64,000 bases of DNA from an uncultured Planctomycetia bacterium (lineage in GTDB: Bacteria; Omnitrophota; Gorgyraeia; JACOVV01), in the NCBI GenBank assembly GCA_964372345.1, contig CAYJQR010000001.1, forward strand, positions 36,825 to 100,824, given 5' to 3'. The first letter of the stretch is position 1. Every line of letters begins with the position of its first letter. A program made the position numbers and the translations under genes. Shown here in pieces: positions 1-46,635 of this stretch. Under the pieces are notes generated by a model that searched no databases, had not been told where the DNA came from, and worked only from the letters and a program-made list of their open reading frames with translations.

Positions 1-1034
1 AGACAAAAGATCTGGTTCACTTCACCCGTCAGTTGGCTACCCTTGTTTCCGCCGGACTCCCTCTTTTAAAAGCCCTTCGCACCTTGTATGACCAGCTTGA
101 AAAAGGTTATCTCAAAGAGGCGGTCGGAGAGGTTTGTAAAGAGATCGAGGGAGGAACTCATTTTTCGGCCGCCCTCTCCAGATATCCCAAGGCGTTTCCT
201 GAACTCTTTGTCAACATGGTGCGCGCCGGGGAACAGGGGGGGATGCTGGATACTATTTTAAAGCGGCTCGCGGAATTTCTGGAAAAACAGCAGCGGCTGG
301 TTGAGAAGGTCCGCGCCAGCATGATGTATCCTTCTTTTGTCATGGGGATCGCCGTTCTCATTCTGGTTCTGTTGATGATTTTCGTCGTCCCCACCTTTAC
401 CTCCATGTTCCAGGAATTAGGAGGAGCTCTCCCCTTGCCGACCCAGATTTTAATCACACTGAGCGAATTAATCCGGCATTTCTGGTATGTTCTTTTATTT
501 CTCCCTTTCGGCGCGGGGACTCTCTATCGGTGGCTCACGGCCTCTCCCGGCCGGCGCTACTATGTTGATAAGGTTAAACTGAAACTGCCGGTCGTCGGCG
601 TCCTGATGAACCAGGTCTCGGTGGCCCGTTTTTCCAGGACGCTGGGGACTCTTCTTTCCAGCGGCGTCCCGATTTTGGGGGCGCTCGATACCGTCCGCAA
701 CGTTGTCGGCAATGAAGTCGTGGCGCGGGCGATTGGCAGGGTGCGTGAGTCCATTCGCGAAGGAGAAAGTGTGGCAGGCCCTTTGGAGAAATCGAATGTC
801 TTTCCTCCTCTGGTCATCAAGATGGTCGCTGTCGGAGAAGAGACGGGCCAACTGGATAAAATGCTGGTCCAGATCGCGGATTCCTACGAGGAAGAAGTGG
901 ACGTCGCCGTTAACGGGCTCACGGCGTTACTGGAGCCGTTCCTGATCGTCACGATGGGGCTTTTGGTCGGTTTCATCGTTGTCTCGATGTTCTTGCCGCT
1001 GTTTAGTTTGACGAGATTGGTGGGAGGGGAATAA
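1..1034 (+). CDS. Type II secretion / type IV pilus platform protein, GspF/PilC family. 5' partial: the reading frame is open to base 1.
   Basis: The translation has GspF-family motifs (FTRQLATLVSAGLPLLKAL, two polytopic membrane repeats) and the C-terminal domain is complete. The frame continues upstream of the first Met with no stop. Confidence 0.85.
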   Translation, partial: TKDLVHFTRQLATLVSAGLPLLKALRTLYDQLEKGYLKEAVGEVCKEIEGGTHFSAALSRYPKAFPELFVNMVRAGEQGGMLDTILKRLAEFLEKQQRLVEKVRASMMYPSFVMGIAVLILVLLMIFVVPTFTSMFQELGGALPLPTQILITLSELIRHFWYVLLFLPFGAGTLYRWLTASPGRRYYVDKVKLKLPVVGVLMNQVSVARFSRTLGTLLSSGVPILGALDTVRNVVGNEVVARAIGRVRESIREGESVAGPLEKSNVFPPLVIKMVAVGEETGQLDKMLVQIADSYEEEVDVAVNGLTALLEPFLIVTMGLLVGFIVVSMFLPLFSLTRLVGGE

Positions 1035-1470
<436 letters not shown>

Positions 1471-1474
<4 letters not shown>

Positions 1475-2121
1475 GTCCAAATACAGAGAATGGAAAATGG
1501 AAAATGGAAAATGGATTTAGGAATTTGTTTTTCCCATTCTCCATTCTCCATTCTCCATTCTCCGCTTTTACATTGCTGGAACTTCTGATCGCCATGACGA
1601 TTCTAGTGGTGATTCTAACCAGCACTTACACTCTTTTTCGCAGCGCCTCGGGGGCCTTCTTAAAAGGGGAAGTGCGGTCGGAACTGTATCAGCAGGTCCG
1701 GATTATCTTTGGTGTGGCGGAACGCGAGATCAGCTCGGCGCTCCCTGTGCCGGGAAAGGATCGTTATTTCCAGGGAAGCGAAGACCGGCTCTTCTTTATC
1801 TGTCCCGTTTCTGAACAGGACAAAGCGGACTTAAGAGAGGTCGGTTACTGGTTGTCGAATGAAGATCAGACGCTGATGCGCCACGTGGATACCGACCCGG
1901 ATTTTGATTTCACCACGGCTGACACGAATGAAGAACTTGGGGTCCATATCCAGCGGCTGGCGTTTTCTTATTATGACGGAGAAAAATGGGGAAACTCCTG
2001 TGATTCGCAGATCGAGCAGGGGCTCCCGAAGGCGGTTAAAATGGAAATAACCATTGGGGATAGTCGTGGGAAAGAGAAGAGTGAGTTCTCAACGATTGTG
2101 CGGATTGAGACAAACCAGTAA
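1471..2121 (+). CDS. Minor pseudopilin (GspJ-like).
   Basis: Has a prepilin-like segment AFTLLELLIAMTILVVILTSTYTLF with Glu at +5. Its leader is again encoded by the heptamer element. The -1 residue is Ala/Ser rather than Gly. There is a 4-nt overlap with the upstream gene. Confidence 0.65.
1487..1562. repeat. Heptamer inverted-repeat miniature element, copy A2.
   Basis: Sequence is agaatggaaaatggaaaatggaaaatggatttaggaatttgtttttcccattctccattctccattctccattctcc. The core is nearly identical to A1, including the ggatttaggaatttgttttt spacer. Confidence 0.85.
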
Positions 2122-5100
2122 AACGTACGACGTACGACGTACGACGTACGACGAATCTGGGATCGCTCTCATTATCGTCGTCAGTGTCCTCGCGATCGCC
2201 GGCGTGATGGCGGTCAGTTTTGCCTTCAGCCAGCGGTTGGAGCTGAAAGCGGCGGTCAACTACCAGCTCTCCGTCAAGGCGGGGTATATCGCCGAAGCCG
2301 GAATTCGCCACGCGGTGCAATTGTTAAAGGAAGACAAAGGGGTTAACGCCTACGACGCCTACTCGGAGCTGTGGGCGGCCAATTTTCAGGGCGAAGACGT
2401 TGACAACAATGGGGACGGCGCGGCCGATTCCCGATGGTTCGACTTCACGGAAGAAGGGGAGACGATAGGGCGTTACGCGGTATGGGTGGTTGACGAGGCG
2501 GGAAAGGTTAACCTGAACGCCGCTGGTTTTTACAATACTTCTCCTTTGAAGATCACGGAGGGATGGACTCCTTTCGAAGTGAGTCTTGAGAAATTATTGG
2601 ATGGTTTGACCGTGAGCAACGCTAAAGGATTGATGGAATCCATCCTTGATTATCGTTACGGAGGAGAGAGGGGACTCAAAGGAGGAATGGATAGCAGGGA
2701 TAATGATTTGGACGGATTGACGGATGAAAAAGGTTATCCCGGAAAAGATGACGATTCTTTCGACGATAATGGAAACGCGCGAGTCTTGGCTTATGACGGG
2801 ACCGATAATAACGCGGATGGAGTCCGCGATGAGCCCAATGACGGGATCAATGAACCGATGGAGTACAATCCCTGGGAACCGTACGCGGATGACCGGGTTT
2901 TCTTGACTACGGAACAGATCAAGGGGGTGGAGGGGGTCACGGAAGACGTTTTTCAAAAAATCCGGAACTTTGTAGGGACCCACTCCGCGGATAAGGAATT
3001 AAATTCTTATTCCAGGAATAGAATCTGCCTGAATCTGGCGACGGTGGATCAATTGTACAAAACCTTTCGTGAACGTGGAGTGGGACAACCGGCCCTCAAG
3101 GCGGTCCGGCTGAAGGATTGGCTGGACGCCGATTTGGAGCGGAGCAGTATCGTCAGGTTTGTCAAGGATCTGCCGGTTTCCGATCTTGGCAGCATTGGGG
3201 AGTGGAAGTGGGAAGGGGCTTATTATGCCAACAAAATTCCGGGGAGTGAACCCGGTCGGTGGCGGTGGATCGGTATCCCGGAAGGAAAATATTATGTGAC
3301 CTTGCTGGCGGATAAGCCGAACGACGTCGTTGGAGACGTCACGATCGCCGGTGAAGTGGTTCAAGAGATGAAACACGGAGACGCGTTTGTGACGGCAGAT
3401 TCCAACACGGTGTCTATCGGAGGCGATAGGAGCCTGACGGTGACGATCCAAAATAATCGGCAGGGAGAAGGGAGCGAGTGCCGTTTTCAAAAGATAGAGT
3501 TAGAACCGCAGGAAGGAATCCCCGCCGGCTTTAAGTCGGCGCCGGTTTATGGAGTGGAGGGGGTCAGGATCAACGAGCTGATGGTGAGGCCGATGGTGGA
3601 ACTGAATGTCAACCAGGGTCATGACCCTGGAGGGGACTGGAATTTCGAAGAGAATGGTTACGTCAACAGGAAACCGGCGGGGGGGACCATCGGAGAAGGG
3701 GTCTGGGAGTGGGAGGGCGTTCCTAATGGAACTTACTATGTGAATCTTTACGGGAAAGAAGACGGCAAGCCGGTCGGGGATGTGGAGATTAAGGGGAAGA
3801 AGAGTAGCCATTTTAAATCGGGAGGGAGATTCTCAGACACGGTAACGGTTTCCGGGGGATACTTAAGAATCGAAATCCAAAACAATGAAGAAAGCGAAAA
3901 CTGTGCTTTTTCCAAGGTGCGGCTCAGCCAGCAGCCGGATGATGAATACATCGAGTTAATCAACATTTCCCAGGATCCGATTTCGGTGGCGGGTTGGACC
4001 CTCGAGGGACCGGGCCCCGAAGGATGGCCGGCGACGATTCCGATTGAAACGGAACCGATTCCGTCGGGGGGGTATTTGGTTCTGGCGGTTGATTTGAATG
4101 ACAGCCAAACCGGCGTCTCAGGGAATGGGATCGCTTTCCATAAGAATAAGAACTGGGCCGAAGTTGACAACGCGGCGCAATTGCTGTTCAAGAATTCCGT
4201 CTCAGAGACAGGGGATCTCCTGAAAGACGGGCTTCAAATAGGATCGGAAACAGTCCGTCTGAAAAACACGGACGGCCAGGTGGTGGACGAAGCGGAATAT
4301 ACCTCTTATCCGGAGGCGAACAAGAGTTTAGAGCGGGCCAATCCCGCCGAAGACGCGGATTCCAACTCTAACGGCATCCAGGACGGGTTCTATACCACGA
4401 CCGGCCCCGGCGGCGGAACGCCCGGTAAAGAAAACAAGAACGTGGGATTGATTAAGGAATACAACGAATTCAACGACCCTGTTTACTACGATATCAACAA
4501 GGAGATCTGGATCAGGAATCGGCCTCTTCCTAACCTGGGGGTCCTCTCTGAACTTCCGATGCCAGGATGGACTCGTTGGAACTTGAGAGATCTGGGTTTT
4601 TTTGTGGACGATATCACTCTTCACGCGCAAAGATTGGAAGCCGAAGGACATCAACAAGAGGTCTCAGGATGGGCGGAGGTTCAACAGAGCGATCCATCGT
4701 CGAGCATTTTTCGTAGTCAACGGCTTGAAGAAGTGGGAGAATGGAGATGGGACAAGACCGATTTACTCAAGAACGGCTATTACACTCTGCGAATCTTCGG
4801 CAAGCCGGGACAGGGGGTACAGTGTTCCATCCGGTTGAAGGATGGAACATGGACGGAGTTTACCCCGGCGCTGACTCCGTCCAGCGATGGGAGTGTTGTC
4901 TATGGCGTGATTGGGATTGGCACCGGTGAGGAGACCGCCGTGGGAAAAAGGGTTCTCTCCCTGAAGCTGAAAAACGCTTCAGCGTCGGGAACAGCGACGT
5001 TTGACTACATCACGCTGGAGCCGTTCCCGGTGGTCTATGGAAAAATTAATCTCAACACGGCCCCTTCGGAGGTTCTGCAGGCGCTGCCTGGAGTGGATCA

Positions 5101-5350
5101 GACCCTGGCTGAAAAAATCATCGCGGCGCGCCCCCTTGGAGATTACCAGGGGCTAAAAAGAGGGGTTGGTGATTTAGTGACGAAAGGAGTGCTGACAACA
5201 GAAGATTCAAAAAGTTTTGAACAGTTTGGAAAGATGGCCAATTTAATCACCGTTCGTTCGGACGTCTACGAAGTCATTGCCACAGGACAATGGGTGCGTC
5301 ACGGGGTTGTCTTGGCTGAAAAGAAAATTAGAGTAGTGGTGGAGCGATGA
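2054..5350 (+). CDS. Giant GspK-like minor pseudopilin (1098 aa). It has an N-terminal pseudopilin-like transmembrane helix, a lamin-tail-like domain, three Trp-rich beta-sandwich repeats and a C-terminal helix-hairpin-helix. The start codon is uncertain.
   Basis: The hydrophobic N-terminus GIALIIVVSVLAIAGVMAVSFA and the C-terminus INLNTAPSEVLQALPGVDQTLAEKIIAARP are typical of GspK. EYIELINISQDPISVAGWTLEG matches the lamin-tail-domain signature. A motif of the form GEW-W-G...G.YYV.L.GK....GDV occurs three times. No ATG lies between the upstream stop (2121) and the transmembrane helix, so the start is either ATG 2054 (a 68-nt overlap) or non-canonical. Confidence 0.6.
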   Translation: MGIVVGKRRVSSQRLCGLRQTSKTYDVRRTTYDESGIALIIVVSVLAIAGVMAVSFAFSQRLELKAAVNYQLSVKAGYIAEAGIRHAVQLLKEDKGVNAYDAYSELWAANFQGEDVDNNGDGAADSRWFDFTEEGETIGRYAVWVVDEAGKVNLNAAGFYNTSPLKITEGWTPFEVSLEKLLDGLTVSNAKGLMESILDYRYGGERGLKGGMDSRDNDLDGLTDEKGYPGKDDDSFDDNGNARVLAYDGTDNNADGVRDEPNDGINEPMEYNPWEPYADDRVFLTTEQIKGVEGVTEDVFQKIRNFVGTHSADKELNSYSRNRICLNLATVDQLYKTFRERGVGQPALKAVRLKDWLDADLERSSIVRFVKDLPVSDLGSIGEWKWEGAYYANKIPGSEPGRWRWIGIPEGKYYVTLLADKPNDVVGDVTIAGEVVQEMKHGDAFVTADSNTVSIGGDRSLTVTIQNNRQGEGSECRFQKIELEPQEGIPAGFKSAPVYGVEGVRINELMVRPMVELNVNQGHDPGGDWNFEENGYVNRKPAGGTIGEGVWEWEGVPNGTYYVNLYGKEDGKPVGDVEIKGKKSSHFKSGGRFSDTVTVSGGYLRIEIQNNEESENCAFSKVRLSQQPDDEYIELINISQDPISVAGWTLEGPGPEGWPATIPIETEPIPSGGYLVLAVDLNDSQTGVSGNGIAFHKNKNWAEVDNAAQLLFKNSVSETGDLLKDGLQIGSETVRLKNTDGQVVDEAEYTSYPEANKSLERANPAEDADSNSNGIQDGFYTTTGPGGGTPGKENKNVGLIKEYNEFNDPVYYDINKEIWIRNRPLPNLGVLSELPMPGWTRWNLRDLGFFVDDITLHAQRLEAEGHQQEVSGWAEVQQSDPSSSIFRSQRLEEVGEWRWDKTDLLKNGYYTLRIFGKPGQGVQCSIRLKDGTWTEFTPALTPSSDGSVVYGVIGIGTGEETAVGKRVLSLKLKNASASGTATFDYITLEPFPVVYGKINLNTAPSEVLQALPGVDQTLAEKIIAARPLGDYQGLKRGVGDLVTKGVLTTEDSKSFEQFGKMANLITVRSDVYEVIATGQWVRHGVVLAEKKIRVVVER
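2123..2153. repeat. (CGTACGA) heptanucleotide tandem repeat, about 4.5 units.
   Basis: Sequence is acgtacgacgtacgacgtacgacgtacgacg, directly at the gspJ-like / gspK-like junction. It lies inside the putative N-terminal coding region of the 1098-aa ORF. Confidence 0.9.
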
Positions 5351-6945
5351 GAAAAACGGAAAATGGAAAATGGAAAGTGGAAAGTGGGAAAGACAAAAAT
5401 CCATTTTCCGGGTTTTATGTCTTGTTGATTGTTTTTGCTTTATCCATTTTCCATTCTCTATTTTCCATTTTCCCTGTTTACGCCGAGGCCAGCAAAAGTT
5501 CCAAGTTCACTCTCGATGCCGGAGGATTTGTTTCTGGAGGGGGCAGCGCTGAAAGCCCGACAATCAAATCTCAAGCCGGAAACCTGGGAGATTTCGCGGG
5601 AACAACCACCACCGCGACTTCCTCTGGAACTTCCTCATCGGGCGCGGCTTCCGCCGTGACTACGGTGAATCCGGGGCTTCTCCAGGTCATCGTGGGAGAA
5701 GGCGCTCATAGTGATTATCCTTTTGATATCAAGGAAATCATTGCTAAGGATTCTCCCATGGGAAGCGCCATCACTGCCGCCGACTGGCAGAAGGATAATG
5801 ATCCCTATTTCTACTGGACGGTTTATGGTCCGCCGGAAGGAGTCATCGGTTACAGTTTTGCTCTGAACGCGATTCCCGATGAAACAGTGGATGTGAGCGA
5901 TTCCAGTTTTTCCTATGCCGGGAAGAATATCTCCGACGGCAAGCATCTTTTCCGTGTCATTGCCCAGAGCGCCGCCGGCAAATGGGGAAGAGAAGGGGCT
6001 TTTGAAATCTGGATTGACGCGACGGCTCCATCGGTGGTTTCCTTTAATCCCGGGAACAAGGCCCTGCTGAATACGGCGACACCCCAGATCCAAGTCGCTT
6101 TAAAAGATGCTGACAGCGGCGTCAACCCGGATTCCGTTGTTTTAAAGGTGAATCGCGCCACGGTTGAGGTCCCTTTTGACGACCAACAGGGGGGCGTTAC
6201 TTACACGCCTGCTTCTCCGCTAAAAGAGGGGATTAATTCGATCACGTTCGACGCGCGGGATAAAACAAATAACGTCGCGGCGACTCTAGTCTGGAGCTTC
6301 ACCATTGATACCCAAGCGCCCGGCGGAAGCGTCGTCATCAATAACGGCGACGCGTCCACCACTTCTACCTCAGTCAAATTGACGCTCGCTGCGGAAGACG
6401 CGACGACTTCGGTTAAAGAGATGATGATCAGTAATCAACCTGATTTCGGCGGGGCGCGCTGGGAACCTTTCGTTGGTTTGAAAGATTCGTGGACACTCTC
6501 TCCGGTCAGCGGGGAACGGGCTGTCTATGTTAAATTTAAAGATGAAGCGGGCAATGAATCCGGCGCCTACAGCGACCCCATCGAATTGGTGATCATCGCT
6601 CCGGACACAACCATCACCAGCGGCCCTTCCGGGGTCACCGATCAGACAGCGGCGGCTTTCACTTATTCCGCTTCTGAGTCCGGCAGTTCTTTCAGGCGTC
6701 AAATTGACGGGGGGGATTGGTCGGAGTGGGGGACTGAAACCTGGGTGACGTTCACCGATCTTAAAAGGGGAAATCACTATTTCGGCGTCAAGGCCGGTAA
6801 AGATGTGGATGGCAATGGCACGATTGACGCCGACGAGGAAGATCCGACCCCCGCGACGCGAAGCTGGACGATCAGTGAAAGCGGCGGAACAGAAGCGATT
6901 AACTTACCACCGGAAAAGCCAGTGAAATATTGGTACAAAGAATAG
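5347..6945 (+). CDS. Secreted protein with Ig-like/Big-like beta-sandwich repeats. Possible pilus-associated adhesin or T2SS substrate.
   Basis: The N-terminal signal peptide is largely encoded by heptamer element A3 (hydrophobic core FYVLLIVFALSIFHSLFSIFPVYAEA). The sequence is Thr/Ser-rich with repeated modules reminiscent of bacterial Ig-like domains. The ATGA start overlaps the upstream gene. Confidence 0.5.
   Translation: MRKTENGKWKVESGKDKNPFSGFYVLLIVFALSIFHSLFSIFPVYAEASKSSKFTLDAGGFVSGGGSAESPTIKSQAGNLGDFAGTTTTATSSGTSSSGAASAVTTVNPGLLQVIVGEGAHSDYPFDIKEIIAKDSPMGSAITAADWQKDNDPYFYWTVYGPPEGVIGYSFALNAIPDETVDVSDSSFSYAGKNISDGKHLFRVIAQSAAGKWGREGAFEIWIDATAPSVVSFNPGNKALLNTATPQIQVALKDADSGVNPDSVVLKVNRATVEVPFDDQQGGVTYTPASPLKEGINSITFDARDKTNNVAATLVWSFTIDTQAPGGSVVINNGDASTTSTSVKLTLAAEDATTSVKEMMISNQPDFGGARWEPFVGLKDSWTLSPVSGERAVYVKFKDEAGNESGAYSDPIELVIIAPDTTITSGPSGVTDQTAAAFTYSASESGSSFRRQIDGGDWSEWGTETWVTFTDLKRGNHYFGVKAGKDVDGNGTIDADEEDPTPATRSWTISESGGTEAINLPPEKPVKYWYKE
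5358..5473. repeat. Heptamer inverted-repeat miniature element, copy A3. It is longer than A1/A2 and has exact terminal inverted repeats GGAAAATGG ... CCATTTTCC.
   Basis: Sequence runs ggaaaatggaaaatggaaagtggaaagtgggaaagacaaaaatccattttccggg ... ccattttccattctctattttccattttcc. The interior has a nested palindrome (aagacaaaa / ttttatgtctt). Confidence 0.8.
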
Positions 6946-6980
6946 CGTATAGCGGTCAGCGTTCAGAAAAGACTTTTTAA

Positions 6981-7013
6981 CTGTACCCTGAACCCTGTAC
7001 CCTGTACCCTGAG
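6981..7013. repeat. (CCCTGTA/CCCTGAA) heptanucleotide tandem repeat, intergenic.
   Basis: Sequence is ctgtaccctgaaccctgtaccctgtaccctgag. A related copy cccctgtcccctgtaccctgaaac sits at 31974-31997. Confidence 0.85.
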
Positions 7014-7019
7014 TGCTAT

Positions 7020-8672
7020 ATGTCAACCTCGATCGGTCTGGATATCGGATGGCGGGCGATTAAACTGGTGCAGCTGGAGAAGTCGCCCAAAGGGATTCGC
7101 TTATTGAAGACGGGAGCGCATCTCATTCCTTACAAGGAAAAGGAAACGGAGTCCGAGCGGTTAGAGGCGATCACGAAAGGGATCGGCCAGCTGTTGTCAG
7201 AATTAAGAATCTCACCGTCCAGTTCCTTCAATTTAGCGGTGTCGGGCCAGTCTGTTTTTATCCGGACGATTCAAGTCATCGCGGTCAGCTATGAGAAATT
7301 AAGACAGCATATCCGTTTTGAAGCCGAGCAACATATCCCGTTTGCCCTCAACGAAGTTTTATGGGATTACTGTTTAGTCAATCCTGAGAGAAAGAAACAT
7401 CCGGGCCTTCAGGAAAAGAGGTCGGGGGAATGGCGGGTGATTCTGGCCGCCATTAAAAAGAACCTGGTGGACCGTCAGCGGGAGTTTATCAGCAGAATCA
7501 GAGGAAAATGCAGGCTCATTGACGTCGGCCCGATTGCTTTTCACAGCGCGTCCTGTTTCATGGACGCTCATTTTTTAAAACAGACCATCGTGTTATTGGA
7601 TATGGGGGCGAGAGGGACGAATTTAATCATCGCCGGCAATGGAGAGGTGTGGGTTCGGAGCTTTCCCCTTGGGGCTGACCGGTTCACCCAAGCGGTGAGT
7701 GAGAAGATGAAGATCGCTTTTAACGAAGCGGAGGTTTTGAAACAGCGGGTAGGGTTAGGGCCGGCGCCGGATTCTGGGGAGAGCGCCGTTGTGGAGGCGA
7801 TAAAACCGGCCGTTACCGATCTGTTGGAAGAAATCCAGCGGTCGCTGGAATATTATCATACTCAGGTGACGACGGCAGGCGCGTCCCATCCCAAGCCGGC
7901 GAAAATGGTACTGGGAGGGGGCGGAGCGCTGTTAAAGGGGATTGTGCCTCTCTTTCAGGAAAAACTGGGAACGCCGGTTGAATTATGGTCCGGGTTTCAG
8001 AATCTTTCAAGCCGCGTTTCCCCCGCTGTCTCTCAATGGCCGCAGGTGCAGTTTGGCACGGCGATGGGACTGGCCCTGCGCGGTCTGGTGACTTCCCCGA
8101 TTGAACTCAATCTTCTGCGGGAAGAGGTGAATCGTCATGCCGAGAGAAAAACCCTGCGGTTGTACGGAGGAGGATCACTTTTTCTAATATTGGGAATGCT
8201 GGGAATCATGGCTCAGGCGACTCGCAGTGAATATCAAAAGAAGGCGGGCTATCTGGAAGAGATCAAAAAGACGATAAAGACCTACCAGAGTTACGAACCC
8301 AAAATTAAGGAGCTGGAATTAAAAAACCATCTGTTAAAAAACCAGGTGAGTTCGCTCTACGGCGTTCTGCGGCAGAGGCAGACATGGCTGGATGTTCTCC
8401 AGCGTTTGGAGAAATCACTGCCCAAAGAAGTCTGGCTGATGAGCTATGAAGGAACCTTAGATCTGACTTCCGGTTCCCAGGACGCGACAGCGGGAGTCGT
8501 CAGGATTGTGGGACGATCCCTCTCCTATCAAGGGGTGACGGAGTTTGTTTCTAACCTCAAAAACTCGGTTCAATTCACTCAGGTCAAACCGGTTTCTTCC
8601 AATATTAAGAAGTCAGAAACTGGGGATGAAATTGTCGAGTTTCAAGTGGAGATGAAAATAGCATGGCAGTGA
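7020..8672 (+). CDS. PilM-PilN fusion: a PilM-like actin-fold domain, a transmembrane segment, then a PilN-like periplasmic domain.
   Basis: The N-terminus IGLDIGWRAIKLVQLE and about 370 aa match the PilM/FtsA-like fold. A transmembrane helix (LRLYGGGSLFLILGMLGIMAQA) and a coiled coil typical of PilN/GspL-M follow. Confidence 0.7.
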   Translation: MSTSIGLDIGWRAIKLVQLEKSPKGIRLLKTGAHLIPYKEKETESERLEAITKGIGQLLSELRISPSSSFNLAVSGQSVFIRTIQVIAVSYEKLRQHIRFEAEQHIPFALNEVLWDYCLVNPERKKHPGLQEKRSGEWRVILAAIKKNLVDRQREFISRIRGKCRLIDVGPIAFHSASCFMDAHFLKQTIVLLDMGARGTNLIIAGNGEVWVRSFPLGADRFTQAVSEKMKIAFNEAEVLKQRVGLGPAPDSGESAVVEAIKPAVTDLLEEIQRSLEYYHTQVTTAGASHPKPAKMVLGGGGALLKGIVPLFQEKLGTPVELWSGFQNLSSRVSPAVSQWPQVQFGTAMGLALRGLVTSPIELNLLREEVNRHAERKTLRLYGGGSLFLILGMLGIMAQATRSEYQKKAGYLEEIKKTIKTYQSYEPKIKELELKNHLLKNQVSSLYGVLRQRQTWLDVLQRLEKSLPKEVWLMSYEGTLDLTSGSQDATAGVVRIVGRSLSYQGVTEFVSNLKNSVQFTQVKPVSSNIKKSETGDEIVEFQVEMKIAWQ

Positions 8673-9418
8673 AAAAGAGAGCCGTCTCTTTTCCGGCGCT
8701 GTTGGCGGGGGTGGTTTTTCTGGCAATAGCGGGGGCGCTGGTATGGTTTGGTTTCGCGGGAGAACATAACCCCCAGGAAGTGGAAAAAGAGTTGAGCCGC
8801 AGAGAGAGAGAGATAAGGCGTTATCAGGGAGAACAAAAGACCACGCCGACGCCGGAGGCGTACGCGGTATTGCGGAAGATTAATGAAAAACTGAACAGCG
8901 ATTTAAAACAGCTTGAACAGATGATTCAAAAAACAAATCTAACCGTTCCGGAAGGGACGGTGACCGATGGGCTCTTTTTCCGGGAACAGCTCTTTAAGAC
9001 AGGCAAGGACCTTCACCTTCTGGCGTTGGATCGTGAGACGGTCCTTCCGGAGACACTGGGATTTTCTGATGAACTGCCGGACGTTAAAAGAGTTCCGCTC
9101 CTGCTCCGCCAGCTGTTGACGATACAGGAGACTGTGACCGCGTTCATCGAATCGGGAACGGGGGCGTTATCCCTGGTGAAACCGCTCGACCCGGTCGAGC
9201 ATAAGAATCAGGACACGGGCCAGGTGACTCTGGTGGAACTTCCGGTGCAGATTGCCGCGGAGTGCGATTTCCAAACTCTGTTAGCCGTTTTGATCCATCT
9301 CAGAAACAGCTCACAGGCAATCGTCGTCCGTGAACTTCAGGTAAAGACCAAGGAAGAAGAAACTCTGCAGGTTCAGATGGTGGCCAGTGGGTTTTTTATC
9401 GCGAGTAAACAAGAATGA
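8663..9418 (+). CDS. PilO-like pilus assembly protein.
   Basis: It has an N-terminal transmembrane helix, a coiled coil and a C-terminal alpha/beta domain. It sits immediately downstream of the PilM-PilN fusion and overlaps its 3' end. Confidence 0.5.
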   Translation: MAVKKRAVSFPALLAGVVFLAIAGALVWFGFAGEHNPQEVEKELSRREREIRRYQGEQKTTPTPEAYAVLRKINEKLNSDLKQLEQMIQKTNLTVPEGTVTDGLFFREQLFKTGKDLHLLALDRETVLPETLGFSDELPDVKRVPLLLRQLLTIQETVTAFIESGTGALSLVKPLDPVEHKNQDTGQVTLVELPVQIAAECDFQTLLAVLIHLRNSSQAIVVRELQVKTKEEETLQVQMVASGFFIASKQE

Positions 9419-9987
9419 GTAAACTCAAAATCGTTTTCTGGATATTGGCGGTTCTTTTTACGGCTTTTTTTATTCATCGCGCTCTCTTTACCTCCGGGGC
9501 CAGGAACGGGAAGATGCTGGATCCGGCCAAGAAAAATGTTCAGGCGCTCCTGGACAAGGCAGAGGAGAGGCTTCCTAAAGAAGTGTCGGTGCGTCTGGAT
9601 CCGTTAACAGTTCCAATTTTAGAGGACTCCTATAAAGGGCTCAAAGGAAGGAATTTGTTTGCTCAGTATCAAGTTTCTAAAAAGACCGCAGCCCCTTCAA
9701 AATCTGACAAGAAAGGGGATGAGGCAGCGAAGTCAAAGAAGAAAGAAGAACCCCCGCCGGCCGTCTTCTTTTATAAAGGGACGATTCATCTGGGAGGAAA
9801 ACAGGTGGTGATCCTGCAGGAAGAAGGGGGACGCTCTTTCTTTGTCGGGAAAGGGGATCATCTGGTGTTAAAGGGGGGGGAATCAGAGTACGAAGTCATT
9901 GACATTACAGCAGATGAGGTGATAATATTAAATTCGAAATTACCTCAGGAAGAGAAAGTTTCAGTCTCAAAAATAAAGTCCAAATGA
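9415..9987 (+). CDS. PilP-like protein.
   Basis: It has a transmembrane/signal anchor and a Lys-rich linker. The C-terminal beta domain GTIHLGGKQVVILQEEGGRSFFVGKGDHLV...YEVIDITADEVIILN matches the PilP-fold pattern. Confidence 0.5.
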   Translation: MSKLKIVFWILAVLFTAFFIHRALFTSGARNGKMLDPAKKNVQALLDKAEERLPKEVSVRLDPLTVPILEDSYKGLKGRNLFAQYQVSKKTAAPSKSDKKGDEAAKSKKKEEPPPAVFFYKGTIHLGGKQVVILQEEGGRSFFVGKGDHLVLKGGESEYEVIDITADEVIILNSKLPQEEKVSVSKIKSK

Positions 9988-11570
9988 AGAAAATGCTACT
10001 TACTTTTATCCTAGGGTGTTTATTCATGGGGGCGCAGGGTGATTGGCCCCTCATGGCCATTGACACAAAGACCCCTGCTAGCCAGAGCTTAACCGTTGAG
10101 GACCTGCGTCAACTGGAAGCGCGAGTGAAGGCGCTGGAGCAGGAGTTTGCCGGGGAAAGAGCAAAAGAGAAAAAGAGTTGGTTTGGTCAGTATCAGGAAA
10201 GACGAAAAGAAGAAAGGGCTCGTCAAGTAGAGAAGAAACGAATTCTTAAGGAGGAACGCGAAAGCTCAAAACAGCGGGCGGATCGTCTCTACGAAGAAGC
10301 CAAACAGCTGATACGAGGAAAAAGGTTTAAGGAAGCAAAGAAAGATTTGGAAGAAGTGGACCGGCTGGATCCCAATCGTCATTGGGTGAATGTTCTCTTG
10401 ATGGAGGTAGATTCGCGGATCCAGCGGGACGTCCGGAATGAGAGGGAAGAGCGGTTGCAACGACGGACTTGGCTGGTCAAACGGGAGGCCGGAACAGAAG
10501 AGCCAGAACCAGCAAAGCAAGGACCGATTCAGAAAAAGAGGGTGGAGAAAAAAGAAGGGACGGAATGGAAGAAACAAAGAGAAATAGAAGAGAAAAGGGA
10601 GAAATCAGAAAAAGATAAAAGACTTCAGGAAATAAGGGAAGAAAAACGGCGGGCCGCGGAAGAACAGAAATCGGGAAGAAAGAGAAAACAGGAAGAAAAG
10701 CGGGTTCAGGAAGAGAAAAGGAAAGAGGAGAAGACCGCCCAACTCAAAGAGAGAGCGGAGGCAAAGGCGATCTATCAAAGGGTAGCGGCGAAACGGAAGA
10801 AGAGTGACAAGAAGCGACGGGAGGAAGAGAAAGAGCAAAAACAGGCGGAAAAGGAAAGACAGGAAGCGGAGCGAGAGGAGAGGATTCAGAAAAGCCGGGA
10901 AGAAAAGAAATTAGTTGTTCTGGCCGAAGAAGACCTGAACGCGAGAGAAAGAGAAGCGAGACAATCGCGGAGCAAAGAGGCGGTAGATCCGGAGAAAGAA
11001 CAGGGCTTGGACGAAACGGCGTCTGAACAAGAGAGATTAGCGCGCGAGCAGAAGAGATTGGGAGAAGAATTCTTGAACTGGAAGGTCGCCAAGAAAAAAC
11101 CGCAGGAAAAGCCAACCTATAGTTCATTCTTAATACAGGGTGGAGAGACTGCTCTGGAAGTGAAGCAGTATAACGCGGCGATTGCCGCCTATGAAGCCGC
11201 TTTGAAGTTGGAGCCGGAATCAAGCCAAGCGCAGCGAGGAATACGCACGGCTCAAATGGCAAAAAAAGAGGAGGCAAGAAAGGCAATCCTGGCTCAATTA
11301 GATCGCCGGCAGCGAGTTGTTTCTAAACCGATTACGATTTATTTCCATGACGCAACTTTAGCTGAAATGCTCGAACATCTTCAGAAAATAAGCGGCGCCG
11401 ATTTTGTGATTTCTGATGAAGTCAAACAAGATCAGGATCGAAGAACGATCTTCATCCAGGAAGTGCCTTTAGAGGACGCCCTCCAGCAGATTCTCGAAGG
11501 ATATAAAGAATTCGTCTATTCCGTCAAAAACCAGACCGTTTCGATCACAAAACCTGTTACCGCTCACTGA
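9984..11570 (+). CDS. Lipoprotein with a long Lys/Glu-rich coiled coil, a TPR-like segment and a C-terminal secretin-N (N0/STN)-like domain. There is no secretin beta-barrel.
   Basis: Has a lipobox (FILGC), a stretch of about 250 aa of KE repeats and the TPR-like AAIAAYEAALKLEPES. The C-terminus ITIYFHDATLAEMLEHLQKISGADFVISDEVKQ...LEDALQQIL fits the secretin/TonB N-terminal short-domain pattern. Confidence 0.5.
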   Translation: MKKMLLTFILGCLFMGAQGDWPLMAIDTKTPASQSLTVEDLRQLEARVKALEQEFAGERAKEKKSWFGQYQERRKEERARQVEKKRILKEERESSKQRADRLYEEAKQLIRGKRFKEAKKDLEEVDRLDPNRHWVNVLLMEVDSRIQRDVRNEREERLQRRTWLVKREAGTEEPEPAKQGPIQKKRVEKKEGTEWKKQREIEEKREKSEKDKRLQEIREEKRRAAEEQKSGRKRKQEEKRVQEEKRKEEKTAQLKERAEAKAIYQRVAAKRKKSDKKRREEEKEQKQAEKERQEAEREERIQKSREEKKLVVLAEEDLNAREREARQSRSKEAVDPEKEQGLDETASEQERLAREQKRLGEEFLNWKVAKKKPQEKPTYSSFLIQGGETALEVKQYNAAIAAYEAALKLEPESSQAQRGIRTAQMAKKEEARKAILAQLDRRQRVVSKPITIYFHDATLAEMLEHLQKISGADFVISDEVKQDQDRRTIFIQEVPLEDALQQILEGYKEFVYSVKNQTVSITKPVTAH

Positions 11571-11574
11571 AGGT

Positions 11575-12654
11575 TTGGCCATGGACCCTCTACTCAGGGG
11601 AAAACTTTCCCAATTAACCAATCGGCTTAACGAGCTGGCGAAGCTGTTGGAGTTGGACGAAAAGAAAAAAGAGGCCGCCGGCATAGAAACGCTGATGAGC
11701 GAGCCCGGTTTCTGGAACCGGCAGGATTCTTCCAGCAAAATTTCATCGCTCAAATCGCTCAAGAAGACCATTGACGTCCTGACTCAGGCCCAGACCCACG
11801 CGAAGGAATTGGCGGAATTAGGAGAAATCGCCGAGGCCGCGGAGATGGAACGGGAGTTAATGGCGCTGGAAAAGTCGGTGGCGGAGTTGGAGTTTGCATC
11901 CCTTCTGGGAGGAAAACAGGATATCCGCCCCGCGATCATTTCGATTCACGCGGGGGCCGGAGGGACCGAGAGCTGTGATTGGACGGCGATGCTCTATCGG
12001 ATATACTCCCGATGGGCGGATAGAAAGGGATTCAAGATCCGTGAAATTGATTTTCTCGCCGGTGAAGAAGCGGGGATTAAAAGTGTCTCCGCGATGATTA
12101 CCGGAGATTACGCCTACGGTTATTTGAAGTCGGAGAGAGGTGTTCACCGGCTTGTCCGTATTTCCCCGTTTGACGCCAATAAAAAGCGGCACACCTCCTT
12201 CGCTTCCGTGGACGTTATCCCCGAGGTTTCAGAGGATATTAAAATTGATATTAAGGAAGATGACCTTCGGATTGACACCTATCGGGCCGGAGGAAAAGGG
12301 GGACAGCACGTCAACATGACCGACTCGGCGGTCCGTATCACCCACACTCCAACGGGGATCGTCGTGCAGTGCCAGAACGAACGTTCCCAGCATCAAAATA
12401 AGGAAGTGGCCATGAAGATGCTGCGGGGTAAATTATATGAGGTGGAAGAGCAGAAGCGGGAGGCCGAAATGGCCAAACATCACGGCAGTAAAAAGAAGAT
12501 CGAGTGGGGGAGCCAGATCCGCTCCTACGTTTTGCATCCCTATAATATGGTGAAAGATCATCGAACTGACACGGAGACTTCTAATACCTCCGCGGTATTG
12601 GACGGGGAGCTTGATTTATTCACGGAAGCGTATTTGAAATGGCGCCTGAGATGA
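11575..12654 (+). CDS. prfB: Peptide chain release factor 2.
   Basis: Contains the SPF tripeptide (RISPFDAN) and the GGQ motif ([19 protein letters not shown]). It aligns end to end with RF2 as one continuous ORF with no frameshift. The start is probably the ATG at 11581. Confidence 0.9.
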
Positions 12655-12664
12655 GGGGTTTTTC

Positions 12665-15370
12665 ATGCTGAGCTGGATTCTTAAAAAAATTGTCGGTACC
12701 CAGAATGAAAGAGAATTGCGCCGGTTGATCCCCGCGGCGCAAAAGATCAACGCTTTAGAACAGGAGATTCAGAAGTTATCCGATGAAGAACTCCGGAATA
12801 AAACCGAAGAATTTAAAGAACGGTTGGTTAAGAAAGTGGGCCCTGAGAAACTCTATCTCAGGCGAAAGCACTCGCCGGTGTTGGTGGAAAAAGGAGACGC
12901 GGAGTATGAAGAATACCATGCGGCGCGCGAGGCGATTCATAGCGCTTTAAACGAACTCTTGCCGGAAGCGTTCGCGGTGGTGCGGGAGGCGGGGCGGCGC
13001 GTGCTCAAAATGCGCCATTTTGACGTCCAGTTGATCGGCGGCATTGTTCTTCACCAAGGAAAAATCGCGGAGATGGCCACCGGCGAGGGAAAAACGCTCG
13101 TGGCGACCCTGACGGTTTATCTGAACGCGCTCACCGGAAAAGGGGTGCATGTCATCACGGTCAACGATTATCTGGCGCGGCGAGACCGCGCCTGGATGGG
13201 GCCGTTGTATGAATTTCTGGGACTGACGATCGGCGTGATCCAGCATGATATGGATCCCGAGGAACGCAAAAAAGCGTACGCCTGCGATATCACCTACGGG
13301 ACGAACAACGAGTACGGTTTTGATTATCTGCGCGACAACATGGTCATTCGCAAAGAGGACAGGGTCCAGCAAAGGGGACTGCACTACGCCATCGTTGATG
13401 AAGTGGACAGCATCCTGATTGACGAGGCGAGAACGCCGCTCATCATTTCCGGGCCGGCGGAGGAATCCACGGAGAAATATTACGTGATTAACCGGATCAT
13501 CCCGCGGCTTGAGAAAGAAAAAGATTATCAGATTGACGAGAAAGCCAATACGGTCAATCTCACCGAAACAGGAATTCATCAAGTGGAAGAGATGCTGGCG
13601 GTCAAGAATCTTTATGAAGACGTGAATATGGATCTAGTTCATCATGTGAATCAGGCGCTCAAAGCGCATACTCTTTTCCAGAAGGATGTGGACTACGTGG
13701 TGAAAGACGGAGAGGTGCTTATCGTTGATGAGTTTACCGGCCGTTTAATGCCGGGGCGGCGGTACTCCGACGGCCTTCATCAGGCGCTTGAAGCGAAAGA
13801 AGGGGTCGCCATTGAACGGGAAAACCAGACGCTGGCGTCCATTACTTTCCAAAACTATTTCCGCATGTACGATAAACTGGGTGGAATGACAGGGACGGCG
13901 GCGACGGAAGCCCAAGAATTTCACGCGATTTACAAATTGGATGTGGTTGTGGTTCCGGCGAATAAACCGATGAAACGGACTAATCATCCGGACGTCATTT
14001 ACCGGACCGAGCGGGAGAAATTCAACGCCGTCATCGCTGAAATCGCCCAGCTTTACAAAGAAGGGCGGCCGGTGCTGGTCGGAACCATTTCCATTGACAA
14101 GTCCGAGAAACTGAGCGCCCTATTGACACGGAAAGGAATCCCGCACCACGTCCTCAACGCGAAATACCACGAGAAAGAAGCCGAGATCATCGCGCGGGCC
14201 GGGCAGAAATTCTCCGTTACGATCTCTACCAACATGGCGGGCCGGGGAACCGACATCATTCTGGGGGAAGGAATCGCCGGCCTTGGAGGATTGCATGTTT
14301 TAGGGACGGAGCGCCATGAAGCGCGGCGGATTGATAACCAGCTTCGAGGAAGATCAGGGCGTCAAGGAGATCCCGGATCGAGCCGGTTTTATCTTTCGTT
14401 AGAGGATGATCTGATGCGGATTTTTGGCGGTGACCGGATTTCTGGAATGATGTCAAAACTAGGAATGGAAGAGGGGCAGGACATTCAGCATCCTTTAGTC
14501 ACCCGTTCCATCGAAACCGCGCAAAAACGGGTAGAGTCGAGAAACTTTGAAATACGAAAACATCTTTTGGAATACGATAACGTAATGAATAAGCAGAGAG
14601 AAGTGATTTACCAGGAAAGAAATGAAGTGATCGAAGGAGAAGATCTACGCTCACACGTTCTTGAAATGATCGAAGAGGCGATCCGGAATACTTTCGGCCG
14701 TTATGTGAACCCGCAGGTGGCGCCGGATCAGTGGGATCTGGCCGGGTTAACCGAGTGGGCGAGAAGAGGGCTGGGACTGCGGTGGGAAACGGCGAAAGAG
14801 TCGGGTTTAGAGGCGAGGCAAATCGAAGCGTCATTACTGGAGGGGGCTTTAAAATCGTATCAGGAAAAAGAGGAACAGCTGACCGCGGAACTGATGCGCC
14901 AGTTAGAGAGAAGCGTTTTATTGCAGATCATTGATTCCAAATGGAAAGACCATCTCTACGCGATGGACAATCTTCGGGAGGGGATCGGACTCAGGGCTTA
15001 TGGTCAGCGGGATCCGCTGGTGGAGTATCAGCATGAGGCGTATATCATGTTCACCGACATGGTGGAGTCGGTCAAACAGGAATCGGTGGAGATGCTGATG
15101 AAAGTCCAGTTGATGCGACGGGAACCCAAGCCGGCGCGCGGCATATTGGAGACGATTCCTCAGAAACTGGTTCATGAGACCCCCTCCGCTCTGGCGGGAA
15201 ATCCGTTGAAATCGGTGGAAGAGGCGATACCGGGGAGCGGGGCCCCATCGGCGAAATCAATGCTCGGCGGCCCGCAGCCGGTCCACCGCCAGACTCCCAA
15301 GGTGGGGCGCAATGATCCCTGCCCCTGCGGGAGCGGGAAGAAGTACAAGAAATGCTGCGGGGCTGTTTGA
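12665..15370 (+). CDS. secA: Preprotein translocase ATPase SecA.
   Basis: The full-length 901 aa product has DEAD-motor motifs ([33 protein letters not shown]) and the C-terminal zinc-binding tail [14 protein letters not shown]. Confidence 0.95.
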
Positions 15371-15372
15371 AA

Positions 15373-16935: not shown

Positions 16936-16974
16936 CAAATGTATATGACTATGATATACCTAAAGTAGGCAGAT

Positions 16975-17286
16975 ATGGAAGAGCTCTCCCAGTGTGTTGG
17001 TTTTGAGTGGGATAAGGGAAATAGCCAGAAGAACTGGCTAAAGCATCATGTCAGTCCGATGGAGTGTGAAGAATTATTTCTAAATCGGCCGCTGGTGCTT
17101 GCCGAGGATGTAAAACATTCCCATCAAGAAAAACGTTATTACGCTTTAGGGCAGACGGATATGAAGCGGTTTCTTTATATTGTATTTGTTCTCCGAAACC
17201 GATATGTCCGAGTGATCTCTGCCAGAGACATGAGTCGAAACGAAAGAGAGGCATATCTCAATGACGAAAAGAAAACAAATCCCTAA
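16975..17286 (+). CDS. brnT: BrnT-family toxin (DUF497 ribonuclease toxin).
   Basis: The 103 aa product has the N-terminal WDxxKxxxNxxKHxV signature (FEWDKGNSQKNWLKHHVS) and R/ISAR-like C-terminal residues (VISARDMSRNE). Confidence 0.8.
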   Translation: MEELSQCVGFEWDKGNSQKNWLKHHVSPMECEELFLNRPLVLAEDVKHSHQEKRYYALGQTDMKRFLYIVFVLRNRYVRVISARDMSRNEREAYLNDEKKTNP

Positions 17287-17542
17287 TTTTCGATCCGAAG
17301 ATGAGGAACGGCGATTCTGGGATTCCCATGATTCGACTGGTTACATTAATTGGAAAAAAGCTAAGCGAATAACGTTCCCGAACTTAAAACCATCAACCCG
17401 GACAATTTCTCTGCGGCTGCCGGAATCCATGCTGGAAGAATTGAGACTCTTGGCGAATAAGCAGGATGTCCCCTATCAGTCGCTCATGAAAGTATTCCTA
17501 GCGGAAAAGATAGGAGAAAAATTAGGAACTTACAAAGCATGA
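17261..17542 (+). CDS. brnA: BrnA-family antitoxin (CopG/RHH-like).
   Basis: The 93 aa product overlaps the brnT 3' end. Its C-terminal ribbon-helix-helix segment (SLRLPESMLEELRLLANKQDVPYQSLMKVFLAE) is typical of BrnA. Confidence 0.75.
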   Translation: MTKRKQIPNFRSEDEERRFWDSHDSTGYINWKKAKRITFPNLKPSTRTISLRLPESMLEELRLLANKQDVPYQSLMKVFLAEKIGEKLGTYKA

Positions 17543-18318: not shown

Positions 18319-18337
18319 ACAGATTCACCAATTTCCA

Positions 18338-18367
18338 TTGACCTAACCTCTCAATTCCCTTTATAAT
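18338..18367 (+). promoter_or_regulatory. Sigma70-like promoter upstream of lysS.
   Basis: TTGACC (18338-18343), a 17-18 nt spacer and TATAAT (18362-18367), 20 nt before the lysS ATG. Confidence 0.5.
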
Positions 18368-18386
18368 AATAAGTTGTAGAAAACCT

Positions 18387-19760: not shown

Positions 19761-19761
19761 G

Positions 19762-20932: not shown

Positions 20933-20940
<8 letters not shown>
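19762..20940 (+). CDS. Lipoprotein-releasing system permease, LolC/LolE (FtsX/MacB family).
   Basis: A four-transmembrane FtsX-like topology with a large periplasmic loop. It is adjacent to the LolD-like ATPase. Confidence 0.75.
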
Positions 20941-21649
<709 letters not shown>

Positions 21650-21662
21650 AAGAGGTGGTGGG

Positions 21663-45056: not shown

Positions 45057-45089
45057 AGCATAATTGTTACATTTTATGTAATAATTATG

Positions 45090-45118
45090 TTGACAAACAG
45101 CTTCTTATATGGCATATT
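45090..45118 (+). promoter_or_regulatory. Candidate promoter for abiEi-abiEii.
   Basis: TTGACA (45090-45095), a 17-nt spacer and CATATT. It overlaps the palindromic operator. Confidence 0.4.
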
Positions 45119-45147
45119 TGTTACAGAGAACGTAACAAATATGCCAT
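45109..45147. promoter_or_regulatory. Perfect 16-bp inverted-repeat operator overlapping the abiEi start codon.
   Basis: ATGGCATATTTGTTAC agagaac GTAACAAATATGCCAT. The right arm ends in the ATG at 45146. Confidence 0.7.
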
Positions 45148-46632: not shown

Positions 46633-46635
46633 ATA

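Follow-up and report, generated by a model that had tools for sequence, protein, structure and literature searches.

The analysed window (64,000 nt; positions 36,825 to 100,824 of the forward strand of contig CAYJQR010000001.1, assembly GCA_964372345.1) derives from an uncultured Planctomycetia bacterium, placed by GTDB in Omnitrophota; Gorgyraeia; JACOVV01, and encodes a 1098-residue protein of the GspK family, here called the giant protein, in which three jelly rolls resembling carbohydrate-binding modules (CBMs) and a lamin-tail domain (LTD) are embedded at successive levels of nesting within the GspK alpha-domain. This architecture is new, as is its conservation, with a constant partner gene, across many Omnitrophota-type genomes. 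From sequence, predicted fold and synteny, the giant protein is a GspK-family (K-type) minor pilin, and we consider it somewhat probable that it is an apical pilin with a built-in adhesin or receptor head, probably glycan binding. The family is already present in databases as GspK, with Pfam hits to LTD, HHH_3, and T2SSK, and binding modules borne by tip pilins are known as a concept. A literature search, Omnitrophota literature included, found no paper joining GspK with a lamin tail domain or describing the architecture of the giant protein.

The open reading frame (ORF; 2054–5350, plus strand) is a single frame of 1098 codons without an internal stop. Its start is ambiguous over approximately 17 codons (in-frame TTG at 2054, GTG at 2066, GTG at 2081, TTG at 2096, and TTG at 2105); all of these candidates overlap the 3′ end of the upstream gspJ-like gene, and no start codon is present between the stop of that gene (2119–2121) and the hydrophobic helix of the giant protein. 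Among 5.8 billion proteins searched, 44 homologues were retrieved, 39 of which are 1027 to 1103 residues long and aligned across 96 to 100% of the query at 32 to 91% identity, while the exact protein as translated here was absent from the protein collection, probably owing to a different start call. A genome scan with one genome per species yielded 111 encoding stretches, from which 75 distinct loci were kept; most span query residues ∼30 to 1098, and orthologues are thus carried by at least 75 loci, at 26 to 91% identity. All 75 come from metagenome-assembled or single-amplified genomes named either Omnitrophota/Omnitrophica or generically (“uncultured Planctomycetia/Planctomycetales,” “bacterium”), and some homologues carry the NCBI name “general secretion pathway protein GspK.” An earlier note on this DNA, made from the sequence alone, had described a GspK-like pseudopilin expanded to 1098 residues and had named a split into two genes as the finding that would undo this description. 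The uninterrupted ORF and near-full-length orthologues in most of the 75 loci bear out the size, and the same intact frame, with 39 homologues aligned over nearly their entire length, indicates one gene. The giant protein thus belongs to a real, conserved family and is neither an artefact nor a two-gene fusion. Mean pairwise identity is 49 to 54% in the inserted domains as compared to 53 to 58% in the pilin core; with conservation this close to that of the core, the inserted domains are under comparable constraint, and purifying selection acts on the insert.

The leader of the giant protein comprises approximately residues 30 to 36, with Gly36 as its last residue. The N terminus reads ESG/IALIIVVSVLAIAGVMAV (slash, predicted cleavage site), the aligned family consensus is KG/IALILVVSVLAV, and the model places a helix at residues 34 to 93. 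Following the glycine, the giant protein has IALII and the consensus IALIL, position +5 being Ile or Leu in the 21 aligned sequences displayed, whereas both upstream neighbor pilins carry Glu+5 (G/FSLIE in the GspI-like and A/FTLLE in the GspJ-like protein). In type IV filaments, the subunit without Glu+5 is the apical one (PMC13533445). Toward the C terminus, residues 996 to 1028 match Pfam HHH_3 (36.6 bits) and T2SSK (26.7 bits, over the cut-off of 24.2), and the NCBIfam profile T2SS_GspK (E 5e-20) aligns residues 35 to 317 with profile positions 2 to 214 of 307, a second stretch aligning at the C terminus. These matches agree with the proposal of the earlier note that both GspK ends, a transmembrane helix and a C-terminal helix-hairpin-helix (HhH), are retained.

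The AlphaFold2 model of the giant protein, built from a 41-sequence alignment, has a mean predicted local distance difference test score (pLDDT) of 82 and a predicted template modeling score (pTM) of 0.79. Low pLDDT is limited to residues 1 to 36 and parts of an acidic loop at ∼205 to 285, in which residues 213 to 217, 221 to 232, 234 to 236, 241 to 247, and 263 to 265 fall under 50. At a length of 1098 residues, this pTM suggests domains packed against one another in a set arrangement, not strung out like beads. The model exhibits a pilin fold with a five-stranded sheet into which the alpha-domain is inserted, and Foldseek matched it to XcpK in 9a1f at a probability of 1.0. The C-terminal strands of the giant protein, a strand at residues 1085 to 1097 among them, appear, in the model, to complete its own sheet. 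Two DxDxDG-like motifs were found, DVDNNGDG at 115 to 122 and DNNADGVRDE at ∼251 to 260, the acidic D/N-rich loop being conserved at 62% mean pairwise identity; the presence of D/N-rich stretches was correctly noted before. Their proposed role as calcium sites is plausible by analogy, given the two calcium sites of canonical GspK and the three of XcpX (PMC6211770).

The insert of ∼630 residues lies inside the GspK alpha-domain, immediately ahead of the “INLNTA” HhH motif. It contains three modules (M1–M3) that are mutually homologous by hhalign (E 4e-33 for M1–M2, 1e-12 for M1–M3, and 2e-12 for M2–M3). Foldseek on the model gave TM-scores of 0.62 to 0.69 to CBM6, and the modules are predicted to adopt the beta-jelly-roll fold of CBM6, CBM35, and CBM36. 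Conserved Trp, Asp, and Asn residues in them include W384, W386, D528, W529, W551, N610, W897, and W899. Between M1 and M3 lies the lamin-tail domain, for which the native sequence scores 32.5 bits at residues 624 to 750, just below the Pfam LTD gathering score of 34.3. In-silico excision of M2 joins “GVRINELMVRP” to “EYIELINIS” and raises the score to 42.8 bits over profile positions 6 to 108, indicating that M2 sits inside the lamin-tail domain. With a profile score above the gathering score after excision and an Ig-like (immunoglobulin-like) fold, this region is a lamin tail domain (PF00932). The earlier note had thus recognized the LTD-like domain, with the correction that M2 splits it. 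Its three Trp-rich repeats, defined by a motif that opens with GEW and ends with GDV, are homologous as claimed; however, “GEWKW” of M1 pairs with “GDWNF” of M2 and not with “GVWEW,” and M3 lacks the GDV. A central region without a fold, the other outcome named there as fatal, is opposed by the confident domain-level AlphaFold2 prediction. A further HhH-like repeat, the third, seemed present by eye at residues 793 to 865, but hhalign against the HhH regions returned a probability of just 3 to 7%, and this candidate was rejected.

Among 1.84 billion representative proteins, searched with an M1/M2 profile, approximately 35 to 40 cluster representatives of 900 to 1111 residues hold complete modules, each with the same architecture and 2 to 4 copies; these belong to the family of the giant protein. 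Some shorter proteins also hold modules, and the four among them with the family's Pfam hits (P0057, P0069, P0072, and P0079) resemble fragments of the family. P0170 (501 residues), with Pfam matches to the beta-agarase/YxiM galactose-binding-like domain AGA-YXIM_GBD and to CBM35, partially matches the module profile at positions 26 to 108 with an hhalign probability of 88%, a weak and indirect sequence link to CBMs. Against PDB sequences the module profile gave nothing significant, its matches being limited to a generic “G-x-Φ-x-Φ...P-x-G-x-Y-Y” hairpin, as in carboxypeptidase-regulatory-like domains. Multi-copy hits in giant proteins of 2000 to 7000 residues were likewise explained by a generic beta-hairpin and were rejected as genuine modules. 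The module is thus specific to this family and, within the CBM6/35-like fold class, divergent in sequence. Other expanded GspK proteins (857–1463 residues) differ in the content of their insert: P0035 to P0037 and P0041 are without M1, and P0043 carries Golvesin_C. Where the position of variation can be read (the M1-lacking proteins), it is within the same insert region, which argues that the insert site is solvent exposed and tolerant of large insertions.

A machine that is T2SS-like (type II secretion system) and T4P-like (type IV pilus) at once would, under the favored reading, have the giant protein as its apical GspK/PilX-family pilin. By homology, the intact core would join the neighboring GspI-like and GspJ-like pilins in a complex that primes and caps the filament, and the nested insert (M1, the lamin-tail domain hosting M2, an alpha/beta segment, and M3) would form a rigid, beta-rich head of ∼70 kDa at the filament tip. 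The head would serve as a built-in adhesin or receptor, with carbohydrate on a host, prey, or substrate surface as its most probable ligand, because the modules share the CBM6/CBM35/CBM36 fold. One polypeptide would thereby fill the role that elsewhere falls to PilY1 or to modules grafted onto other modular pilins. K-type identity, the absence of Glu+5, and an insert of binding-type folds in the cap domain all fit a tip-displayed binding head. Apical K-type pilins without Glu+5 include some with large adhesin inserts (e.g., CpaL and ComZ; PMC13533445), and the modular-pilin concept is established, lectin modules included (PMC8179133, PMC9934059). The cells of Omnitrophota are ultra-small and are predicted to depend on hosts for their lifestyle; Seymour et al. 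2023 found type-4a pilus clusters in nearly all Omnitrophota and proposed a role in host-cell attachment (PMC10066038). The CBM-like folds and this literature on lifestyle are why an adhesin is favored.

Several observations weigh against such a tip-displayed head. The NCBIfam GspK score is 72.2 bits for the native protein and 75.9 without the insert, as compared to an equivalog cut-off of 130; by this measure, the giant protein is a divergent GspK homologue and not an orthologue of characterized GspK. The structural inferences all come from a predicted model. The modules are strongly conserved rather than variable, which is atypical for adhesins that track diverse hosts. The modules had no match to a Pfam CBM family at E ≤ 0.1. 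Finally, no secretin domain was found across the 64-kb window or in the locus of the 91%-identical relative L001, leaving surface exposure in this organism hypothetical.

The HhH and the lamin-tail domain also bear on an alternative that we regard as improbable, namely that the head and the HhH form a tip receptor for extracellular DNA, acting in uptake or in adhesion to such DNA as for ComZ of Thermus. Some extracellular nucleases of bacteria contain a lamin-tail domain, the Ig fold of lamin is capable of binding DNA, and the ComEA-type HHH_3 motif is strongly conserved in the family; nonetheless, an HhH is generic to every GspK alpha-domain, where it is not known to bind DNA. K pilins with inserts do function in DNA uptake by Thermus and V. 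cholerae (PMC13533445, PMC8179133). However, the repeated modules best match carbohydrate-binding modules structurally, rather than DNA-binding folds, and comEA, comEC, and dprA were not seen in the locus among the proteins scanned.

In the window, the giant gene comes directly after homologues of gspI and gspJ, in the order gspF, gspI-like, gspJ-like, giant K, a gene for a 532-residue Ig protein, PilMN, GspM-like, a 190-residue protein, and a tetratricopeptide repeat (TPR)-N0/STN protein, followed by prfB, secA, and other housekeeping genes (Table 1). Upstream synteny in the relatives was scored for gspF and gspI-like genes: approximately 25 related loci have the gspF and gspI-like pair upstream, with a gap before the giant gene consistent with gspJ, and approximately 30 have a mechanosensitive-channel gene upstream instead of gspI/gspJ. 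In the most distant relatives, two GspG-like genes lie ahead of the gspI-like gene. Among loci with enough flank, a recurring block consists of giant K, the Ig protein, often a small helix-turn-helix protein, PilMN, the PilO-like protein, the 190-residue protein, a TPR-secretin, and a second secretin. In relatives, a TPR-N0-secretin of 828 to 908 residues is followed by a second secretin of ∼500 residues (18228–20954 and 20998–22497 in the related locus L002), whereas in the window and in L001 the TPR protein ends after N0/STN and prfB is next. An assembly ATPase (GspE/PilB) was found neither in the 64-kb window nor upstream in L001; L002 has a T2SSE gene nearby. The locus in the window therefore lacks the secretin and ATPase encoded with the pilins that define a complete T2SS or type IVa pilus. 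It blends T2SS-like parts (GspF, I, J, K, and GspM-like) with T4P-like parts (PilM–PilN). The earlier note had placed a tip-displayed adhesin or substrate-binding module in a secretion piston; the tip-displayed module gains from the K-type pilin, the missing Glu+5, and the cap-domain insert of binding-type folds, while the piston does not follow from a mixed T2SS/T4P locus without a secretin domain.

A filament that stays in the periplasm is a rather unlikely reading of this locus, though one with support of several kinds. The giant protein would then tip a short T2SS pseudopilus, its head either binding and pushing a dedicated cargo through the secretin, possibly the Ig protein encoded next to it, or gating the secretin. 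The minor pilins match T2SS families best (XpsI at 37 bits as compared to PilV at 28.5, plus gspJ and GspK; NCBIfam), gsp operons have the same K, L-like, M-like order, related loci encode GspG-type major pseudopilins as well as secretins, and a Sec-signal protein with an invariant C-terminal motif is conserved directly downstream. In contrast, a rigid ∼70-kDa head atop GspK is big for the secretin vestibule, known T2SS tips need no such module, and extracellular binding proteins are the usual setting for CBM-like and LTD folds. The Omnitrophota literature takes such clusters as attachment type-4a pili (PMC10066038). It is far less probable still that the giant protein stands outside any filament, as a bitopic inner-membrane protein with a GspK-derived anchor and periplasmic CBM-like modules that, for example, bind peptidoglycan to position a machine. 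The absence of a secretin from the window locus, and the many relatives in which the gene follows the mechanosensitive-channel gene rather than standing beside gspI/gspJ, would be expected of such a protein; against it, the complete pilin fold is kept, C-terminal strands included, along with the signature of Gly(−1) without Glu+5, and most relatives with downstream flank keep the platform genes and two secretins directly downstream.

The apical pilin with a binding head may not act singly. In most related loci with downstream sequence, the four-Ig protein (532 residues) is encoded directly after the giant gene, and a full-length homologue was scored in 49 loci. Its layout comprises a Sec-type signal, a Ser/Thr-rich linker at 42 to 122, Ig-like domains at 128 to 509, and a disordered tail. 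The predicted Ig domains have pLDDT mostly of 80 to 96, with adhesin and grappling-hook Ig arrays as best structural matches of the model. The last eight residues follow P-[FIV]-[KR]-[FLYVI]-[WY]-x-x-[ED]-COOH in 40 of the 40 loci compared, with W in 39; the tail in the window is PVKYWYKE. A docking strand is C terminal in PilC/PilY1 and MshQ (PMC13533445), and the four-Ig tail is, by analogy, a candidate for a docking strand of PilY1/MshQ type or for another C-terminal signal. Gene order suggests that the four-Ig protein is probably a partner of the giant-K tip. A more elaborate proposal, which we put forward as speculative and in its entirety decidedly unlikely, is that the giant K and four-Ig proteins together make a PilY1-independent tip head of ∼170 kDa, in which the Ig tail docks by beta-strand addition, in the manner of PilY1 and MshQ, and the modules bind a conserved host or prey envelope glycan. 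Ultra-small, host-dependent Omnitrophota would attach by means of such a head, and the heptanucleotide repeats in the leaders of all three minor pilin genes might make it switchable in this strain.

Table 1 Features of the window, with positions numbered from its first nucleotide
Feature	Position	Strand	Basis or remark
GspF/PilC platform protein, 5′ end cut by window edge	33..1034	+	Pfam T2SSF, 221 bits
GspI/PilV-like minor pilin (G/FSLIE), 84-nt in-frame palindromic element in leader	1037..1474	+	Profile matches
GspJ-like minor pilin (A/FTLLE), same 84-nt element as GspI-like gene in leader	1471..2121	+	Profile matches
Giant GspK-type minor pilin gene, whole (1098 aa; start uncertain, 2054–2105)	2054..5350	+	ORF, homologue alignment, genome scan
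(ACGTACG)x4.4 heptamer array in leader-coding part of giant gene	2123..2153	+	Encodes TYDVRRTTYD upstream of Gly(−1)
N terminus resembling class III signal, ESG/IALIIVV, and long hydrophobic alpha1 helix (aa 34–93), no Glu at +5	2153..2332	+	Model secondary structure, alignment, NCBIfam match start at aa 35
N-terminal pilin beta-sheet strands (aa 106–150), including DxDxDG-like motif at 115–122	2369..2503	+	Model, NCBIfam match
GspK alpha-domain part 1 (aa 151–364), with conserved low-confidence D/N-rich loop aa 205–285 (nt 2666–2908)	2504..3145	+	Model, NCBIfam match, conservation
Module M1, predicted CBM6/35-like jelly roll (aa 365–490)	3146..3523	+	
Lamin-tail first strand(s), GVRINELMVRP (aa 494–518)	3533..3607	+	Excision test
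Module M2, predicted CBM6/35-like jelly roll nested in lamin-tail domain (aa 519–627)	3608..3934	+	Profile-profile comparison, excision test
Lamin-tail (Ig-like) domain, main body (aa 628–792)	3935..4429	+	
Small alpha/beta segment, no assigned fold (aa 793–865)	4430..4648	+	Model
Module M3, divergent jelly-roll copy (aa 866–992)	4649..5029	+	Profile-profile comparison
GspK helix-hairpin-helix part of alpha-domain, GKINLNTAPSEVLQALPGV (aa 993–1066)	5030..5251	+	Pfam HHH_3, T2SSK; PDB sequence match XcpX 5vtm_X
C-terminal beta-hairpin, two closing strands finishing pilin sheet (aa 1067–1098)	5252..5347	+	
Translationally coupled secreted protein, four Ig-like domains, conserved C-terminal tail	5347..6945	+	Pfam, synteny, model, tail alignment
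PilM–PilN fusion, GspL-like architecture	7020..8672	+	Pfam
PilO/GspM/Amuc_1100-family protein	8663..9418	+	Pfam, NCBIfam
Conserved 190-aa protein, no known family	9415..9987	+	Pfam, synteny
Lys/Glu-rich, TPR, and N0/STN protein, homologous to N-terminal part of relatives' TPR-secretins	9984..11570	+	Pfam, synteny
Palindromic element of ∼84 nt, copies	1034–1118, 1489–1563, 5353–5473		Partial copies: 21137–21169, 38478–38498, 56200–56231
Period-7 arrays, examples	2123–2153, 6981–7011, 15859–15888, 37234–37264, 38848–38931, 39330–39356, 61512–61546		
Type I restriction-modification: HsdR, HsdM, HsdS	42675–45056, 46636–48210, 48207–49406		Interrupted by AbiEi/AbiEii pair, 45146–46632
1099-aa protein with N-terminal TIR domain, after HsdS	49403–52702		

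The window is also rich in short repeats. Approximately 17 period-7 tandem arrays occur in the 64 kb, each of 4 to 5 copies (∼30 nt), with unit sequences that differ. Several are inverted pairs within ORFs (hairpins of ∼84 nt) that preserve the frame, and metG and the leaders of all three minor pilin genes are among the sites affected; the metG array encodes AKSWELGARSENSDSTSPASSFQLLASS between conserved motifs, and another array lies in an ABC ATPase gene at 20933 to 21649. The palindromic element of ∼84 nt consists of (GGAAAAT)x4–5, a spacer of ∼20 nt, and (CCATTCT)x4, and is read as ENGKWKMENGFRNLFFPFSILHSPFS. As compared to L001, two copies are clean 84-nt insertions (28 codons, in frame) between the start codon and the G/FSLIE or A/FTLLE cleavage motif, and a third copy lies at the beginning of the Ig-protein gene; none of the five related loci L001 to L005 carries the element. 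As RNA (1030–1125), it has a folding energy of −32.8 kcal/mol (z = −4.4), and no Rfam family reached threshold in the window. We take the period-7 arrays and palindromic elements to resemble the Rickettsia palindromic elements, selfish DNA found in protein-coding genes. At the heptamer spot of the giant gene, L001 has a different, C/G-rich in-frame hairpin insert and the related locus L006 has none, all length differences being multiples of three. The heptamer arrays in the three pilin leaders could be phase-variation switches, because gain or loss of one 7-nt unit shifts the frame.

Two further gene groups were observed. The interval 42675 to 52702 of the window looks like a defence island. 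In some relatives (loci L002 and L003), a second, complete filament gene set (1–9033) lies directly upstream of the giant-GspK block (10001–22497) and comprises T2SSE, T2SSF, a T2SSG-type pilin, small pilins, a 398-residue PilX_N protein, PilMN, and PilO; two assembly platforms thus stand side by side, yet one ATPase and one GspF are seen.

Pilus-like machines of Omnitrophota are the main candidates for the attachment of these abundant, uncultured, ultra-small bacteria, and the giant K family is the most obvious candidate seat of ligand specificity and a concrete target. The giant protein extends the modular-pilin idea to multi-level nesting, with a jelly roll in the lamin-tail domain, that domain in the alpha-domain, and the alpha-domain in the pilin sheet. 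The GspK alpha-domain can act as a platform for grafted binding modules, and no new class of machine is revealed.

Among characterized proteins, GspK/XcpX (3CI0 chain K, 5VTM chain X) shares with the giant protein the hydrophobic N-terminal helix without Glu+5, the pilin sheet broken by an HhH-bearing alpha-domain, acidic DxDxDG-like loops (calcium sites in GspK), and a gene after gspI–gspJ and ahead of an L-like/M-like pair. In contrast, the giant protein is ∼3.5-fold longer, has ∼630 beta-rich residues nested in the alpha-domain and ∼70 extra residues in the acidic loop, and is only 21 to 23% identical. Verru_Chthon cassette protein A (TIGR02600, ∼1300 residues), from bacteria of the Planctomycetes–Verrucomicrobia–Chlamydiae (PVC) group, is likewise huge, with a GspK-like N terminus, and is encoded beside small prepilin-type proteins; NCBIfam gave weak N-terminal matches of the giant protein to cassette protein A and of its two neighbors to B and C. 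Membership was rejected, as only the first ∼60 residues match, at 24 bits as compared to a cut-off of 332. To our knowledge, no giant GspK-like gene is present in the Amuc_1098–1102 cluster of Akkermansia muciniphila. The downstream genes are nevertheless collinear with that cluster: FtsA/PilM-like, Amuc_1100 family (NCBIfam hit), a small protein, and, in relatives, a secretin (PMC5332112).

PilC/PilY1 and MshQ are of comparable mass (∼115–120 kDa; giant protein, ∼117 kDa mature) and, like the giant protein, would presumably sit and act at the filament tip. PilY1, however, is a separate non-pilin with a beta-propeller that docks via its C-terminal strand, and no Pfam hit to a PilY1-type domain was obtained in the giant protein or the eight neighbors scanned. 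CpaL/TadG of Tad pili and ComZ of Thermus are apical and pilin-like, their own C-terminal strand or strands completing the sheet after a large insert without a need for PilY1, as appears to be the case here (PMC13533445, PMC8179133). No sequence similarity of the giant protein to CpaL/TadG or ComZ was detected, and the folds of the inserts differ (a beta-solenoid for ComZ, another kind of adhesin domain for CpaL), as do the machine types. The insert of CpaL and ComZ lies between the pilin sheet and the donor C-terminal strand (PMC13533445), whereas the GspK alpha-domain lies between mid-sheet strands. In the modular pilins of Streptococcus sanguinis, PilB with a vWA and PilC with a lectin module (Raynaud 2021, PMC8179133; Shahin 2023, PMC9934059), a pilin carrier displays a non-pilin binding module, as here, and lectin/CBM-type modules are among the known grafts. 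The module of PilB and PilC is C terminal on a small pilin, whereas the giant protein bears several modules inside the alpha-domain of a K pilin, one within another. With a pilin module joined to LTD and CBM-like domains, the giant protein is a modular pilin as defined by Raynaud et al. 2021, with a nested insertion topology.

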